Below, in pieces: positions 1 through 5,850 of a stretch of DNA of 13,368 nucleotides. Position 1 is the first letter of the stretch; every line of letters begins with the position of its first letter. The translations under genes and the position numbers were made by a program. The DNA lies in NCBI GenBank assembly GCA_018260615.1, contig JAGWDQ010000020.1, positions 1-13,368 of the forward strand, written 5' to 3'. The notes under the pieces were generated by a model. That model had not been told where the DNA came from. It searched no databases and saw only the letters and a list, made by a program, of their open reading frames with translations. Source of the DNA: Candidatus Altarchaeum sp. (lineage in GTDB: Archaea > Altiarchaeota > Altiarchaeia > Altiarchaeales > Altiarchaeaceae).

Positions 1-21
1 TAATTATAAATTAACATTTAT

Positions 22-636
22 TTAAAAAACGCAATTTATGTGGTTGGGCAGTATAAAATACAATCCCAAAAACAGGAATACCAAAAAGCAAACCCCCACA
101 ACTGCATTTGTAGTAAAAAATGCCTTTTGTATTGCTGCTTCCGAAACATCAGAATAACAAATTTTATGCTCGTAAATTAAGAGCAATGCAATTATCGCTA
201 TTCCTAAACCAAACATAAATGCCGATGAAAATAACGACTGAAATAGCACATAAAACAATATTAAAATTCCTATGCTGACAAGATGAAACAGCAAACTTAT
301 TCTTAAAGCGTTCCTGACACCAAATTTTGCCGGAACCGAATATAAATTTTGCTCTCTATCAAATTTAACATCCTGAATTGCATAAATTATATCAAAGCCG
401 GCAACCCAGAACATAACAAAAAAGCAGAGTATTAACGGATAAATTAAATTTTCAAAATTTCCCGTAATTGCCAAATATCCTCCGCCGACACCAATTCCCA
501 AAGTTAATCCCAGAAACAAATGCGAAAAGTAAGTGTGCCTTTTAAGATAAGGATAAATTATAAACAGAAGCACAGGAACAGGGGCGAGAATAAAGCAGAG
601 GAAATTTAAAAAATAAGCGGAAGCAAAGAATAATAA
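22..636 (-). pseudogene. 5'-truncated duplicate of the UbiA/MqnP-like prenyltransferase (codons 99-283 plus an alternative C-terminus)
   Basis: 82-636 is base-identical to 2302-2856. The frame lacks the first 98 codons and has an in-frame TAA two codons upstream of 636. It ends ...VCFLVFLFLGLYFILPNHINCVF*, whereas the intact copy ends ...VCFLLALILGLFL*. Confidence 0.9.
82..636. repeat. 555-bp perfect direct repeat, copy 1 (partner 2302-2856)
   Basis: Line-by-line comparison found no mismatch. Identity breaks at 81/2301 (c/g) and 637/2857 (a/g). Offset is 2220 bp. Confidence 0.97.
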
Positions 637-703
637 ATCTATTTATTGATAAACTCATAATTGTTGATAAAGTTTTACTTTTTTAATTACATAAAAAGAC
701 AGA

Positions 704-1996
704 ATGACTGCTGAAATAGCAATAATGAATAAAGAAGGAATAGCGATTGCAGCCGATAGCGCAGTTACAATGACTGTAAGGGATGAACAGAAAATATTTA
801 CCTCTGCAAATAAACTTTTTTCTTTATCAAATCACTCTCCCGTAGGCATAATGGTTTATGGAAATGCTATTTTTATGGGTGTTCCATGGGAAACGATAAT
901 TAAAATTTATAGAAGCATGTTAGAAAAAAAGAAATTTGATACCTTGAAAGAATATGCAGATAATTTTATAGCATTTTTGGATAAGGGGAATAAATTGTTT
1001 CCCGATTCTGTGCAAGAGAAATATTTAAAGAGTTCTGTTTATGGTTATTTTGCTTATGTTAGAAAAGAAATAAATGATAAGGTATATTTGAAAATCGCCG
1101 AAGAAAAGAAAATTACTGATGAAACAACCGAGCAGATAATATCTGAAATAATAAAAAAGCACTATGAAGATTGGGAAAAAACAGATAACATCCCATCAAT
1201 TCCAAAAAGTTATAATGAAGAGGTAGTAAATAAATATAGTGAAATCATTGACAAAGCAATAAAGGAAGTTTTTGAAAAGTTGCCCATATCAAAAAGTCAT
1301 ATAAATCAATTAAAGAAAATTGTAAGCTATTTATTTTCAAAATTTCCGGAAGGTGTTCAAAAAGGAGATATTTCCGGAGTCGTAATTGCCGGTTTTGGAG
1401 AGAAAGAAATTTTTCCTTCACTTGTGTCATTTATTATTGATGGGGTAGTTAATAATAGGTTGAAATATAAAACCCACATAACTCAAAAAATTAACTTTGA
1501 AATAGATGCTTCGGTTGTTCCTTTTGCTCAAAGTGAGATGGTTCACACATTTATGGAAGGTATTAATCCTAATTTCCAGAATAAAATGGATGGCTACTTA
1601 TCAGAAATATTTGATAAGTATCCTGAAATTATTGTTCGCAGCATAACAAAATATGATGATAATGAAAAGAATCAACTCAAAGAGGAGATGAAACAAGAGA
1701 GTAATAAGATATTCAAAAGTTATCAGGAACATATGCAAATAGTCAGACGGCAGGATAATGTAGATCCTATTATAAAAGTTGTTTCAATGCTTCCGAAAGA
1801 TGAACTTGCAGCAATGGCGGAATCGCTTGTAAATTTAACTTCTTTCAAACGAAAAGTTACAATGGAAATGGAAACGGTTGGCGGCCCAATTGATGTTGCG
1901 ATAATCTCCAAAGGTGATGGTTTTGTATGGATTAAAAGAAAACATTATTTTAGTCCCGAATTAAATCCGCAATTTTTATCAAAATATTATAAATAA
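704..1996 (+). CDS. Ntn-hydrolase (proteasome beta/HslV-like fold) protein with large insertions, 430 aa
   Basis: After Met removal the N-terminus TAEIAIMNKEGIAIAADSAVTM...NKLFSL aligns with proteasome beta TTTVGITLKDAVIMATERRVTM...KKLFQI (Thr1, acidic residue 17, Lys33 equivalent). C-terminal GGPIDVAIISKGDG matches beta-subunit GGMIDVAVITRKDG. Alignment was by eye, with no database search. Confidence 0.7.
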   Translation: MTAEIAIMNKEGIAIAADSAVTMTVRDEQKIFTSANKLFSLSNHSPVGIMVYGNAIFMGVPWETIIKIYRSMLEKKKFDTLKEYADNFIAFLDKGNKLFPDSVQEKYLKSSVYGYFAYVRKEINDKVYLKIAEEKKITDETTEQIISEIIKKHYEDWEKTDNIPSIPKSYNEEVVNKYSEIIDKAIKEVFEKLPISKSHINQLKKIVSYLFSKFPEGVQKGDISGVVIAGFGEKEIFPSLVSFIIDGVVNNRLKYKTHITQKINFEIDASVVPFAQSEMVHTFMEGINPNFQNKMDGYLSEIFDKYPEIIVRSITKYDDNEKNQLKEEMKQESNKIFKSYQEHMQIVRRQDNVDPIIKVVSMLPKDELAAMAESLVNLTSFKRKVTMEMETVGGPIDVAIISKGDGFVWIKRKHYFSPELNPQFLSKYYK

Positions 1997-2003
1997 TCAC
2001 AAA

Positions 2004-2183
2004 ATGAAAAAAAATAAAAATAAAAAAGAGACATATGTATCAATGATTGAATTTGAGAAGAAATTTTTTCCAAAGTCCTTTGAAAAAAGAATGAAGGAGA
2101 GAATTACGGATGCCCGAGCCATAGGAATTAACTCGGCAAAAGAATCTTTAGACAAAATCAGAGAACATTTAGCAGAGAGCTAA
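2004..2183 (+). CDS. Small basic hypothetical protein, 59 aa (not in the ORF track)
   Basis: ATG lies 7 nt after the stop of the upstream gene. The frame is open: MKKNKNKKETYVSMIEFEKKFFPKSFEKRMKERITDARAIGINSAKESLDKIREHLAES*. Confidence 0.65.
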   Translation: MKKNKNKKETYVSMIEFEKKFFPKSFEKRMKERITDARAIGINSAKESLDKIREHLAES

Positions 2184-2189
2184 ACTTTG

Positions 2190-2252
2190 TCTGACTCAGC
2201 AGATGCGCTATGGCTTTCAGCACTTATCCTTCGGGACATTTGCCTTTGGCAA
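2190..2252. other. Cluster of short GC-rich hairpins between convergent genes (possible terminator or REP-like relic)
   Basis: gct[ttc]agc at 2213-2221, tcc[ttcg]gga at 2227-2236 and ttgcc[ttt]ggcaa at 2240-2252. The region is more GC-rich than its flanks. Confidence 0.4.
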
Positions 2253-2271
2253 CTTTAAAGAAATAATTAAA

Positions 2272-3150
2272 TCAAAGGAATAACCCTAAAATTAAAGCCA
2301 GCAAAAAGCAAACCCCCACAACTGCATTTGTAGTAAAAAATGCCTTTTGTATTGCTGCTTCCGAAACATCAGAATAACAAATTTTATGCTCGTAAATTAA
2401 GAGCAATGCAATTATCGCTATTCCTAAACCAAACATAAATGCCGATGAAAATAACGACTGAAATAGCACATAAAACAATATTAAAATTCCTATGCTGACA
2501 AGATGAAACAGCAAACTTATTCTTAAAGCGTTCCTGACACCAAATTTTGCCGGAACCGAATATAAATTTTGCTCTCTATCAAATTTAACATCCTGAATTG
2601 CATAAATTATATCAAAGCCGGCAACCCAGAACATAACAAAAAAGCAGAGTATTAACGGATAAATTAAATTTTCAAAATTTCCCGTAATTGCCAAATATCC
2701 TCCGCCGACACCAATTCCCAAAGTTAATCCCAGAAACAAATGCGAAAAGTAAGTGTGCCTTTTAAGATAAGGATAAATTATAAACAGAAGCACAGGAACA
2801 GGGGCGAGAATAAAGCAGAGGAAATTTAAAAAATAAGCGGAAGCAAAGAATAATAAGCCCGAAATAATTGCAAATGTCCAGGCTTCCTCCACCTTTATTA
2901 TTCCCGAAGGAATGTGCCTGTCTGCCGTTCTTAAATTTAATGCATCAATATTTGCGTCAATAATGCGGTTTAATGCCATTGCCGTGCTTCTTGCCGAAAT
3001 TGCCGCAATTGTGAGCAGGATAAATTTTAATGCATCAAAATCAAAATTTTCTGCTCTCATCGCAATGAGCATTCCCGCATAAATGAAAGGCAAAGCAAAA
3101 ATGCTGTGTTCAAATCGGACAAAATTCAGGAAGTCCTTTGTTGTTGCCAT
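2272..3150 (-). CDS. ubiA: UbiA-family prenyltransferase (MqnP/4-hydroxybenzoate polyprenyltransferase-like), 292 aa
   Basis: Motifs FEHSIFALPF, AMALNRIIDANIDALNLRTADRHIPSG (Asp-rich NxxxDxxxD), YPYLKR and GFDIIYAIQDVKFD, plus multiple transmembrane segments. Confidence 0.92.
   Translation of the reverse strand: MATTKDFLNFVRFEHSIFALPFIYAGMLIAMRAENFDFDALKFILLTIAAISARSTAMALNRIIDANIDALNLRTADRHIPSGIIKVEEAWTFAIISGLLFFASAYFLNFLCFILAPVPVLLFIIYPYLKRHTYFSHLFLGLTLGIGVGGGYLAITGNFENLIYPLILCFFVMFWVAGFDIIYAIQDVKFDREQNLYSVPAKFGVRNALRISLLFHLVSIGILILFYVLFQSLFSSAFMFGLGIAIIALLLIYEHKICYSDVSEAAIQKAFFTTNAVVGVCFLLALILGLFL
2302..2856. repeat. 555-bp perfect direct repeat, copy 2 (inside the intact ubiA)
   Basis: Identical to 82-636. 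Confidence 0.97.
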
Positions 3151-3337: not shown

Positions 3338-4453
3338 CTAAATTTCATCAATTTCCTTTAAAATTTCCCTTATTCCCAAAAGATCAAATCTCGTCTGTGG
3401 TTTTATTATTTTTTCTCTCGTATCAACAAACAATATGTTTTTTGAAACTAAATAACACAGTTCGGGAGTTATCACGGAATATTTATAAAAGTCGTTCCCG
3501 GAAAAATTTTTCAATATCTTTGTTGTGCCTTCATAATTAACAGCAATGTCATTCTCCTGGTATTTTATCGTTACACCAATTGTCTTAATATAGTATAACA
3601 GTTGTGCGATTTCTTCCTTTGAATTGGCAAGACCTTTTTCCACATAGTCATTTATATTTCTTCTAATTTTCTTCTCATCAATCATTGCTGTAAGTAATGC
3701 CGGTTTTCCACCTGCATAGTCCTTTGCCAGTTTTATCTCTTCTTCTGTAAATCCATATTTTTCCAAAAATTTTCCTGCTGTTTCTTCATCAAAATCATCA
3801 ACTAACAGGTATCTGCATCTGTTTTTGAGTATTGCTTCATTATAAACCCTTTCAATAAATAACGAATCGGAAGATAAAGCAAAAACATGGCAAATATGCA
3901 ATTCTTTTGTTAAGCCAATGAAGAAGTTAAACAATTTATAAATCAGTTTTCCATTAATCTCAAGATCGCCAATCATCTGTAATTCATCAATTACCAAAAC
4001 AGGCGTTTTGTGTTTTGCAATGTTTTTAAAATATTCTACAAGATAGTTAAACACATCTTCATTACTTTTTTCTTTGAAAAATGTTTCAAGCAAACTCTTA
4101 TCCACAGGAATTCCATGGGATTTATATAATGTCTTTTCTCCTGTGGAAGTGATATGTTTTAAGACCTTTGTAAAAATATTTTTGATTTTTTTTAAGAATC
4201 CTCCTTCTTCAATTGCGAATAAAACCCTGATAAAATCCTCATATCTTATAATTGATTTTCTCCTTAAATTCACATAAAAAACAACATAATCATCAGGTAA
4301 ATTTTCAATCAGATTTGTAATCAGCGTTGTCTTTCCGCTGTTTATCGGGCCGTAAATAAAATTGAGCAGTTGCGGTTCTGACTCTAAAATTTGCATGATT
4401 TCCCATCTTTCCTTTTCCCTGTCAAAAAATTCAATTTTCCTTATATTTGCCAT
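3338..4453 (-). CDS. Archaeal P-loop ATPase (ATPase_2 / MJ-type AAA family), 371 aa
   Basis: N-terminal FFDREKE, Walker A YGPINSGKTT and Walker B VLVIDELQ. The length and layout are typical of this multicopy archaeal family. Confidence 0.9.
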   Translation of the reverse strand: MANIRKIEFFDREKERWEIMQILESEPQLLNFIYGPINSGKTTLITNLIENLPDDYVVFYVNLRRKSIIRYEDFIRVLFAIEEGGFLKKIKNIFTKVLKHITSTGEKTLYKSHGIPVDKSLLETFFKEKSNEDVFNYLVEYFKNIAKHKTPVLVIDELQMIGDLEINGKLIYKLFNFFIGLTKELHICHVFALSSDSLFIERVYNEAILKNRCRYLLVDDFDEETAGKFLEKYGFTEEEIKLAKDYAGGKPALLTAMIDEKKIRRNINDYVEKGLANSKEEIAQLLYYIKTIGVTIKYQENDIAVNYEGTTKILKNFSGNDFYKYSVITPELCYLVSKNILFVDTREKIIKPQTRFDLLGIREILKEIDEI

Positions 4454-4621
4454 TTTTAATGAATAAAAAGAATTGGTATAAATTTATAAAATCAAATGTT
4501 GCTCATTTTGACTTTTATTATTAATTTTGTTTGATAATAAATATATTTTGGATGTATTTTAAATTAAATATAAAACAATATAAAATATTATGTGCCATTT
4601 ATAAAAATAGAGATGTTAATT

Positions 4622-4640
4622 TTTGACAGGAAGTGTCAAA
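4622..4640. promoter_or_regulatory. Inverted repeat TTTGACA-ggaag-TGTCAAA (possible operator or element end)
   Basis: Perfect 7-bp inverted repeat with a 5-nt spacer, upstream of the ATPase. Function is inferred only. Confidence 0.3.
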
Positions 4641-4672
4641 CCCATGATTTCGTTGTTCGGAAAAATTTTCGT

Positions 4673-4783
4673 TTAAATATTTATTGGATGCGGATTAAAT
4701 TTTAAAATGTTCAGAATTTCCTCTTTTTCCTTTTCTCTGTCAAAAAATTCTATATCGTATTCAAATTTTTTAGTTGTATTCAT
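4673..4783 (-). pseudogene. 36-codon N-terminal remnant of a paralogous archaeal ATPase
   Basis: Translates as MNTTKKFEYDIEFFDREKEKEEILNILKFNPHPINI*. This aligns with IEFFDREKERWEIMQILESEPQLLNFI of the 3338-4453 protein and stops just before Walker A. Confidence 0.8.
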
Positions 4784-4995: not shown

Positions 4996-5079
4996 AATGG
5001 ATGCCCTTAAAATTGACTCTGATGAGTGGAAAAATCTGGAAAATGTCCTGGAAGAAATGATACCTCACTATGACAATAT
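4996..5079 (+). repeat. 84-bp perfect direct repeat, copy 1 (first 27-28 codons of ubiE/menG; partner 5160-5243)
   Basis: aATGGATGCCCTT...TGACAATAT is identical at 4996-5079 and 5160-5243, offset 164 bp. Confidence 0.96.
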
Positions 5080-5159: not shown

Positions 5160-5243
5160 AATGGATGCCCTTAAAATTGACTCTGATGAGTGGAAAAATC
5201 TGGAAAATGTCCTGGAAGAAATGATACCTCACTATGACAATAT
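5160..5243 (+). repeat. 84-bp perfect direct repeat, copy 2
   Basis: Identical to 4996-5079. Confidence 0.96.
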
Positions 5244-5850
5244 AAATTCAAGAATGACTTTCGGAATGGACAAAAAATGGAGAAAAATTTTAATAAATGA
5301 AAGTTGTAATAAGGAAGTTGCGGTTGAAATCGGTTCGGGGCCCGGAACATTGGCAATGATGCTTAAATCAGAAAAAATTTTTTGCGTTGACCCGAGTGCC
5401 CAAATGCATAAAATTGCAAGAGAGCGACTTAAACAGGCAAAAATTTCTCCGGAAAAATTTGAATTTATAACCGCTCCGGCTGAAAAAATTCCGGTAAGCA
5501 ATAATGTTGCCGATTTTGTGTGCTGTGCATTTGCATTCAGGGATTTTTACGATAAAAAGAAGGCATTAACGGAAATTTACAGAATACTGAAAAACAACGG
5601 AAAATTTATGATTTTGGATATTGCAAAGCACAATAATATTTACGGAACACTGATATACAATTACATAAAACACATTGCTCCGGTAATTACGGGTTCTGAT
5701 GCTCCGAAAATGTTAGCAAAGACATATAATGCCTTCGGAACGCCTGAATATTATGCAGATATTATGAAAGAAACAGGATTTAAAAATGTCCAAATCAGGT
5801 TTTTAAATTTCAGAACGATATTTGTATTGAGTGCTGAAAAACGAATTTAA
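5161..5850 (+). CDS. ubiE: UbiE/MenG-family SAM-dependent (demethylmenaquinone) methyltransferase, 229 aa
   Basis: YDNINSRMTFGMDKKWRK, SAM motif I VEIGSGPG, CAFAFRDF and RILKNNGKFMILD match the UbiE/MenG pattern. Confidence 0.82.
   Translation: MDALKIDSDEWKNLENVLEEMIPHYDNINSRMTFGMDKKWRKILINESCNKEVAVEIGSGPGTLAMMLKSEKIFCVDPSAQMHKIARERLKQAKISPEKFEFITAPAEKIPVSNNVADFVCCAFAFRDFYDKKKALTEIYRILKNNGKFMILDIAKHNNIYGTLIYNYIKHIAPVITGSDAPKMLAKTYNAFGTPEYYADIMKETGFKNVQIRFLNFRTIFVLSAEKRI

Follow-up and report, generated by a model that had tools for sequence, protein, structure and literature searches.

A predicted PMI-4 proteasome homolog and its conserved small partner in a horizontally mobile cassette at the ubiA gene of a Candidatus Altarchaeum genome

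A contig of 13,368 bp from a Candidatus Altarchaeum metagenome-assembled genome (assembly GCA_018260615.1, contig JAGWDQ010000020.1) was analyzed over its whole length, which is referred to here as the window. At positions 704 to 2,183 it carries two genes, one for a proteasome-like hydrolase of 430 residues and one for a basic protein of 59 residues. We found that the pair is a self-contained cassette of ~1.5 kb that is horizontally mobile among bacteria, archaea, temperate phages, satellites and plasmids. The cassette may be a conflict module, acting in phage exclusion/abortive infection or in addiction, in which the small partner would restrain or direct the enzyme; we give this reading a probability of roughly one half. 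The source genome is 2.2 Mb in size, is divided into 148 contigs and is 87% complete, and the window is the entire contig C20.

Fold, active site and family of the 430-residue enzyme

An AlphaFold2 model of the enzyme computed on a 139-sequence alignment reached a predicted local distance difference test score (pLDDT) of 93.2 and a predicted template modeling score (pTM) of 0.90; an earlier model from 31 close homologues had a pLDDT of 72 and a poor core, with residues 21-71 below 50. When the enzyme model was compared with the PDB using Foldseek, every top match was a 20S beta subunit or Anbu. Structural overlays on representative proteins with VIA-align revealed a Z-score of 16.3 to 20S beta, with 184 of ~203 residues aligned at a root mean square deviation (rmsd) of 3.5 and with residue 2 of the model falling on residue 1 of the 20S beta chain. 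The next ranks were Anbu (Z-score of 15.1), HslV (12.4), BPH (12.1), connectase (9.3) and other N-terminal nucleophile (Ntn) hydrolases (7-9). On these models, we assign the enzyme with high confidence to the predicted proteasome beta-type Ntn hydrolase fold. The original prediction, which had been made from the DNA letters alone, had proposed such a fold and named structure prediction as its check, and the fold was recovered.

At the sequence level, neither the enzyme nor the small partner matched a Pfam or NCBIfam family, PF00227 included, at E ≤ 0.01. The canonical psmA and psmB of the same genome, which are located elsewhere in it, scored 174-178 bits to the Proteasome Pfam model. A sequence-only search of the PDB returned marginal proteasome-beta matches (E 0.015-0.4) at the N-terminal and GGxIDVAVI motifs. 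Upon alignment with psmB of the same genome, T2, D18 and K37 of the enzyme fell on T1, D17 and K33, but the hhalign probability was negligible (1.4%), and the claim for the fold therefore rests on the structure comparison.

The conservation alignment, which comprised 139 family members of 40-76% identity, revealed that T2, K37 and D397 were invariant and that D18, E390, T391, G394 and P395 were conserved in at least 90% of the sequences. Equivalents of Thr1, Asp17 and Lys33, as well as the C-terminal GGPIDVAII strand, had been recognized beforehand in the single sequence; these residues proved to be conserved among the homologues. G53 was invariant in one family alignment and was assigned by eye, from strand 47-53, to Gly47 of the oxyanion hole. 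The enzyme starts with M-T and has no propeptide, as was expected from its gene, and all 122 complete homologues examined start with (M/V/L)-T. A threonine at position 2 permits the removal of the initiator methionine by methionine aminopeptidase. Because this start is shared by all of the complete homologues, such removal would expose Thr2 as the N-terminal nucleophile with no need for a propeptide. The proposed replacement of the usual GSG motif by AQS fits the order of secondary-structure elements in the model, in which strand 269-275 is followed by helix 278-285.

The core strands of the model comprise residues 4-53, 224-275 and 396-411. Helical insertion 1 (~95-210, with model helices in 101-210) follows H1/H2 (helices 62-73 and 81-94), and insertion 2, a helical hairpin at ~289-360, lies between H3 and H4 and precedes helix 365-385. 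The two insertions approximately double the size of the enzyme relative to a beta subunit, which agrees with the large, probably helical insertions suspected from the sequence. A profile of residues 84-162 of the helical insertion 1 region matched the N-terminal repeats of Cullin-3 in the PDB (E ~4e-4), which we regard as a resemblance between helical bundles and not as homology. No fused or longer form of the enzyme was present in the searched database.

Compared with 20S beta, HslV, Anbu and BPH, the enzyme has in common the alpha-beta-beta-alpha Ntn core, the N-terminal threonine, the equivalents of Asp17 and Lys33 and the GG-x-ID-V-A-V-I strand. In contrast to these proteins, it has no PF00227 match, is twice as large, lacks a propeptide, appears to carry A-Q-S at the GSG position and has no linked alpha subunit or HslU. 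It is also mobile and patchy in its distribution rather than vertically inherited.

The enzyme is a member of PMI-4, and thus of a catalogued family and not of a new one, because a relative, P0107 (62% identical at E 1.7e-163, in a full-length alignment that covers 100% of the query), carries the accession HDY66466.1, which is that of the named PMI-4 representative (Fuchs, Alva and Lupas 2021, Bioinformatics, PMC8665760). That study described 22 new proteasome homolog families, including PMI, short for a proteasome homolog that has multiple insertions; PMI-3 and PMI-4 have a long insertion past H1/H2 and a second between H3 and H4, and PMI-4 is the most numerous PMI type, with members in many bacterial phyla, Euryarchaeota and phages (PMC8665760). 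The present enzyme clusters with the representative, has the Ntn core and the catalytic residues, carries its insertions at the same sites and lacks a propeptide. The overall architecture and the broad distribution, phages included, are the same for both, and we observed no differences between them.

The authors of the catalogue argued that rings and double rings might fail to assemble when these two sites carry insertions, suggested that PMI insertions bind interactors and considered roles of the new homologs in ATP-independent clearance; they found no genomic context or co-occurrence that hinted at the function of PMI-4 (PMC8665760). The earlier suggestion that the enzyme is self-compartmentalising is not supported, as the insertions may preclude rings (PMC8665760). 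The family is far larger than it seemed in 2021, with at least 7975 matches in one search and 5406 clusters at 50% identity. Our literature search on PMI-4 or proteasome homologs in phage defence returned only the 2021 catalogue and nothing later on PMI-4. That catalogue does not describe the conserved mini-partner, the insertion at ubiA or the places that the pair takes as cargo of phages and satellites, all of which are presented below (PMC8665760).

The 59-residue partner

The partner open reading frame (ORF) begins 7 nt past the TAA stop codon of the enzyme gene, at the coordinates and with the spacing first noted for it. In a tblastn search with the 59-residue sequence, about half of 80 genome loci matched directly downstream of the enzyme gene, and an iterated hidden Markov model (HMM) raised this to 75 of the 80 ORF sets. 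When the partner HMM was compared with the downstream DNA of loci containing a complete enzyme gene, 111 of 119 showed a match; these loci were drawn from genomes, metagenomes and phages and covered bacteria, archaea, phages and one plasmid. The loci without an HMM match were the most diverged ones; among them is a Providencia phage in which an ORF of 58 residues is annotated at this place. The start of the partner ranged from ~29 nt upstream to 23 nt downstream of the enzyme stop, and overlap of the two genes was frequent. Neither ORF of the pair arose by chance, since the enzyme has at least 7975 relatives and a partner homologue lies downstream in 111 of the 119 loci. The survey thus upheld the earlier expectation of a small ORF conserved and co-located with homologues of the enzyme, and the partner is a real, nearly universal companion. 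The two genes are co-transcribed and tightly coupled, and the enzyme has the partner as an obligate one.

The partner is a protein of ~60 residues with a net charge of ~+5. Its consensus consists of a Lys/Arg-rich N-terminus followed by x-S-x-x-E-(F/Y)-x-+-x-(F/Y)-(F/L)-P and G-x-x-L-A-x-x-x-L, which in the 59-residue protein corresponds to a Lys-rich N-terminus, S13..E16..F22-P23 and G41..L44-A45..L48. Pro23, which follows aromatic residues, is the most conserved position (at least 90%). The partner evolves faster than the enzyme, with mean pairwise identities of 25% and 45%, respectively. The pairwise identities of the two proteins correlate (Spearman 0.50) among loci that are mutually related; the partner thus co-diverges with the enzyme, and because of this relatedness the correlation points to co-inheritance and is not proof of contact.

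The partner profile had no match in the PDB, its only name in the source databases was 'hypothetical protein', no Pfam family contained it and the ESM Atlas gave no lead. No description of it was found in the searchable literature. We considered whether it could be a modifier resembling Pup or UBact, or a ribbon-helix-helix antitoxin; both candidates were rejected, as there was no conserved C-terminal motif, the spacing was wrong and no HMM matched.

Clustering of the neighbours at the 80 loci revealed no third gene conserved beside the pair. Clusters found in 17-37 loci proved to be antisense shadow ORFs inside the enzyme gene and not real neighbours. No alpha subunit, HslU, PAN or Mpa was found among 143 immediate neighbours, and the partner was the sole conserved neighbour at the 80 loci; the absence of a linked alpha subunit or unfoldase, first seen in this one window, therefore extends to these neighbours. 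The PF01637 'archaeal ATPase' gene of the window (3338-4453) also adjoins ubiA in congener G001, a genome without the enzyme.

Instead of regulating the enzyme, the partner could also serve as its substrate, pro-peptide or acyl acceptor, if the enzyme were a sequence-specific processing enzyme or ligase comparable with connectase. Connectase (MJ0548/DUF2121) is, like the present enzyme, a proteasome homolog without a propeptide; it works outside a proteasome-type barrel, is monomeric and cleaves and re-ligates at KD|PGA, with proline at P1', and it shows that the proteasome fold can act on one specific small motif (PMC7980362). The conserved Pro23 of the partner, following aromatic residues, is a weak hint in this direction, and the insertion sites that may block rings and the suggested binding of interactors by PMI insertions (PMC8665760) would suit such an enzyme as well. 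In contrast, connectase is only a distant structural match, with a Z-score of 9.3 compared with 16 for 20S beta. It lacks H1/H2, has a two-helix insertion between S3 and S4 and occurs only in methanogens (PMC8665760), whereas the AlphaFold2 model of the enzyme contains H1/H2 and no S3/S4 insertion and so lacks the structural features of connectase. There is, moreover, no conserved third gene as a possible target, and a dedicated enzyme-substrate pair would be of no obvious use to phages and satellites. We therefore consider a connectase-like function unlikely, and a regulatory role of the partner within a conflict module is preferred.

Insertion of the cassette at ubiA

The features of the locus are as follows.

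704..1996, + strand: intact ORF of the predicted PMI-4 proteasome-like N-terminal-threonine hydrolase, 430 aa, beginning M-T-A-E-I-A-I-M-N-K
2004..2183, + strand: conserved ORF of the basic partner, 59 aa, supported by the homologue search of downstream DNA
637..703, + strand: left end of the insert, non-coding and upstream of the enzyme gene, presumably with the promoter of that gene; its junction with ubiA-internal sequence is at 636/637
2184..2271, strand not assigned: 3' flank of the cassette within the insert, non-coding
2272..2301, - strand: surrogate UbiA-like C-terminal tail, LALILGLFL plus stop, from the right end of the insert
82..636: left copy of an exact 555-nt direct repeat, ubiA internal-to-3', part of the displaced remnant ORF 22..573 (-)
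2302..2856: right-hand counterpart of that direct repeat (555 nt, exact), within the full-length ubiA 2272..3150 (-)
57..81, - strand: native genus-type ubiA tail, VFLFLGLYF, matching the ubiA 3' ends of congeners G001 and G003
1..56: end of a multi-copy IS630-like element, abutting the native ubiA stop codon; also the end of the contig

The pair is flanked on the opposite strand by two copies of a gene for a UbiA-family prenyltransferase, a 3' fragment (22..573) and a full-length copy (2272..3150), and lies inside a unit with duplicated flanks, as had been noticed previously. The flanks consist of an exact direct repeat of 555 nt (82-636 and 2302-2856) covering the internal-to-3' part of ubiA, beyond which the gene tails are not alike, with VFLFLGLYF encoded on the left and LALILGLFL plus stop on the right. 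Alignment with the congeners revealed that the left tail (57-81) is of the genus type. On this ground, the native order was the tail 57-81, the repeat and the ubiA 5' part 2857-3150, and the insert is 637-2301, with a length of 1665 bp. It encodes the cassette genes only and no recombinase. The last 30 nt of the insert are a diverged UbiA-like tail that keeps the ubiA ORF 2272..3150 full length, and the displaced native 3' end persists as the remnant 22..573. One possibility for the origin of this tail is a donor in which the cassette was located just downstream of a diverged ubiA.

Three congeners (G001-G003) have one ubiA each. In G002 and G003, unrelated DNA lies directly past this gene; in G001, the stretch beyond the stop codon was masked. 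The enzyme is single-copy in the present genome, and a search of 60 further species-level genomes from the phylum, among them the three congeners of 65-87% completeness, did not find it. The idea that the pair is foreign cargo was thus strengthened by its absence from these 60 genomes, by the insert between the ubiA copies and by the single ubiA of the congeners, and the cassette here is a single recent acquisition. The GC content of the pair (0.29-0.33) is the same as that of the remaining window. No tRNA or Rfam match was found in the window, and no significant RNA structure was predicted in the 3' flank 2184..2271 (z 0.72).

The arrangement, as read from a metagenome assembly, is that of an 'insertion with long target duplication', a mode of mobility documented for restriction-modification gene complexes by Furuta, Abe and Kobayashi (2010, PMC2853133). 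The present insert resembles those cases in being a small selfish-looking unit without its own recombinase, with long direct copies of the target, which exceed the 30 bp that define this pattern, and with an empty site in relatives. It differs in that the cargo is not a restriction-modification system, that the repeat is 555 bp long compared with up to ~420 bp in the examples considered from that report (PMC2853133), that a diverged substitute gene tail was added and that the insert resides in an archaeal host. Gene conversion or, in part, an effect of assembly could account for the perfect identity between the two 555-nt copies.

We also considered the possibility that the duplicated flank is an assembly artefact produced by the mis-joining of strain variants or of a repeat. 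The genome is metagenome-assembled (148 contigs, 87% completeness), the contig begins at a repeat-induced graph branch, and the strong difference between the adjoining tails of 25-30 nt contrasts with 100% identity of the copies over 555 nt. In contrast, the junction at 636/637 joins ubiA-internal to cassette DNA, and such a junction cannot be created by repeat collapse. The exact enzyme protein is recorded on four contigs, the longest of 48.8 kb, and within 3 kb there are two further duplications of gene ends in this style. An artefact is therefore quite improbable, and we prefer an insertion that duplicated its target.

Contigs C79 and C49 of the same genome have ends identical to the initial 55-56 nt of this contig, whose start coincides with the assembly-graph branch at the end of this insertion sequence (IS). 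A 347-residue product of C49, read by eye, is a putative IS630-like DDE transposase. The multi-copy IS appears to have inserted at a TA at the native ubiA stop codon, which would have lengthened the remnant ORF by 10 residues. Just inside the shared IS end, contig C79 contains an ORF for a tyrosine-recombinase-like protein of 342 residues (92-1120, - strand; HxLRHSFATHLL…GH…Y), for which no link to the cassette was established.

Further duplications were observed beyond ubiA. An exact 84-nt direct repeat (4996-5079 and 5160-5243, spacing 164 nt) has its second copy beginning 1 nt before the ATG of a ubiE/menG-type methyltransferase gene (5161..5850), giving a miniature gene-start duplication in a style like that at ubiA. 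In the PF01637 ATPase gene (3338..4453, - strand), identity to G001 is only ~73% over the 5' 450 nt, compared with ~89% for the rest of the locus, and 4676-4753 contains a remnant of the gene start that is 88% identical to G001. The region 4000-4753 of the window looks like a homeologous gene-start replacement after which the native start persisted in remnant form. Additionally, repeated DNA at 8636-8694, 10384-10406, 12539-12597 and 12951-13009 gives several co-oriented ORFs a lipobox-type signal peptide (…LSGC/ISGC…) at their start; the products by sequence are probably paralogous exported proteins in a row of thioredoxin/rhodanese genes.

Mobile positions and a possible function in conflict

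The pair was found in Dehalococcoidia, Bacillota, Planctomycetota, Nitrospirota, Poribacteria, Cyanobacteria, Actinomycetota and Acidobacteriota, as well as in ANME-1, Methanosarcinales, Woesearchaeota and others. Identity of the enzyme across domains reaches 60-67%, which favours recent horizontal transfer. The enzyme matches phrog_5990 at full length (E 1.8e-121), and copies of the pair on phages and related elements occupy characteristic places. In Streptococcus phage satellites, the two genes are the last ones at the cargo end, past terS and opposite the integrase, and in the Streptococcus prophage Javan85 they occupy the prophage end, past the lysin. A Providencia lambdoid phage carries them between antiterminator Q/dam and the holin; in a Stenotrophomonas phage, they adjoin the lysis cassette on the opposite strand; and in a Porphyromonas phage, they lie near a methyltransferase inside the structural module. 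Plasmid copies were found in Enterococcus faecium (one plasmid) and in rhizobia. Such slots in phages and satellites usually carry accessory genes, often for exclusion or defence.

These positions could also indicate a function that benefits the element without being defence, such as counter-defence, the degradation of a factor of the host or of a rival phage, or the control of lysis or induction. The pair adjoins lysis cassettes or late-gene regulators in three phages, lies in the structural module in another and is carried by satellites. Most copies, the one in this window included, are nevertheless solitary chromosomal islets without nearby phage genes, and such islets favour a function that works autonomously in the cell. 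We consider a purely element-serving role very unlikely, and a conflict module is preferred.

At the chromosomal loci, approximately one in ten immediate neighbours was a DNA methyltransferase or another protein of the PADLOC type (defence or restriction-modification). A survey of gene neighbourhoods for conserved pairing and defence-island enrichment had been recommended when the pair was first noted. The pairing was confirmed; as to the surroundings, defence genes made up ~10% of the immediate neighbours and housekeeping genes filled the outer positions.

The housekeeping surroundings would also suit an ordinary quality-control or regulatory protease of the Anbu, BPH or HslV type, with the partner as an assembly factor or adaptor and an incidental association with mobile elements. 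The proteasome-type active site is consistent with this, as are the ATP-independent clearance roles considered for the new homologs (PMC8665760). In contrast, the occurrence of the enzyme is extremely patchy, and copies in different phyla and domains are 60-76% identical. The enzyme was not found in the 60 relatives, the present genome already has canonical psmA and psmB, phages and satellites carry the pair in moron or cargo positions, and it is inserted here as foreign DNA. We judge an ordinary protease to be unlikely, much as we do a connectase-like enzyme, and return to the conflict module.

The conflict reading is based on the accessory positions in phages, satellites and plasmids, on horizontal mobility and on the ~10% of immediate neighbours with defence or restriction-modification functions; it is also supported by the patchy presence, with no enzyme found in the 60 genomes of the phylum, and by the style of the insertion with its long target duplication. 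The pair resembles type II toxin-antitoxin and small abortive infection (Abi) systems in having two coupled genes, one of them small, in forming solitary islets among housekeeping genes, in its occurrence on plasmids, prophages and satellites, in rampant transfer and in the faster evolution of the small component. A coupled two-gene architecture on mobile DNA, by which toxin-antitoxin systems are recognized, is thus present. Unlike those systems, the pair contains no recognizable toxin, antitoxin or DNA-binding family and has an enzyme of 430 residues. In the proposed mechanism, the partner would bind the enzyme, with the helical insertions surrounding the active site, or their vicinity, as the probable place of contact. 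It might hold the enzyme inactive until a trigger removes the partner, or it might aim the enzyme at a target. The outcome would be phage exclusion or abortive infection, or the behavior of a toxin-antitoxin-like addiction pair. Protease/inhibitor, toxin/antitoxin-like and defence roles had all been proposed for the pair; the context favours conflict and proves none of them.

Several observations weigh against a role in conflict. No experiment on any PMI-4 protein was found in the literature, and neither protein matched the defence models of PADLOC-DB v2 (best E 0.18 for the enzyme and 0.019 for the partner), a library of 2023 (version 2.0) that covers systems known up to then. Family and profile searches recognized no toxin or antitoxin family in either protein, and at 430 residues the enzyme is far larger than typical toxins. 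The second and third chromosomal neighbours were overwhelmingly housekeeping genes, and there was no enrichment of integrases or transposases; the cassette is therefore usually a solitary two-gene islet and not part of a defence island. Finally, the 100% identity of the 555-nt copies may partly reflect repeat collapse in the metagenome assembly. A broader proposal, that the family represents a widespread and unrecognized class of two-component conflict system in which a threonine protease is gated or aimed by a basic protein of ~60 residues and travels as a recombinase-free cassette of 1.5 kb, in this genome through an insertion with its 555-bp target duplication and substitute gene end, is put forward tentatively and is somewhat less likely than not.

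Proteasome-type enzymes are textbook housekeeping machines. The window adds an intact archaeal copy of PMI-4 with a clear structure of insertion with long duplication, and the local arrangement, with its 555-bp ubiA copies and surrogate tail, adds an archaeal case of recombinase-free insertion that spares the target gene. The pairing with a tiny partner, the mobility across domains and the accessory slots together give PMI-4 its first testable hypothesis, namely that it forms an enzyme-regulator conflict module. If this is true, prokaryotic immunity or addiction would include a proteasome-like protease among its means.

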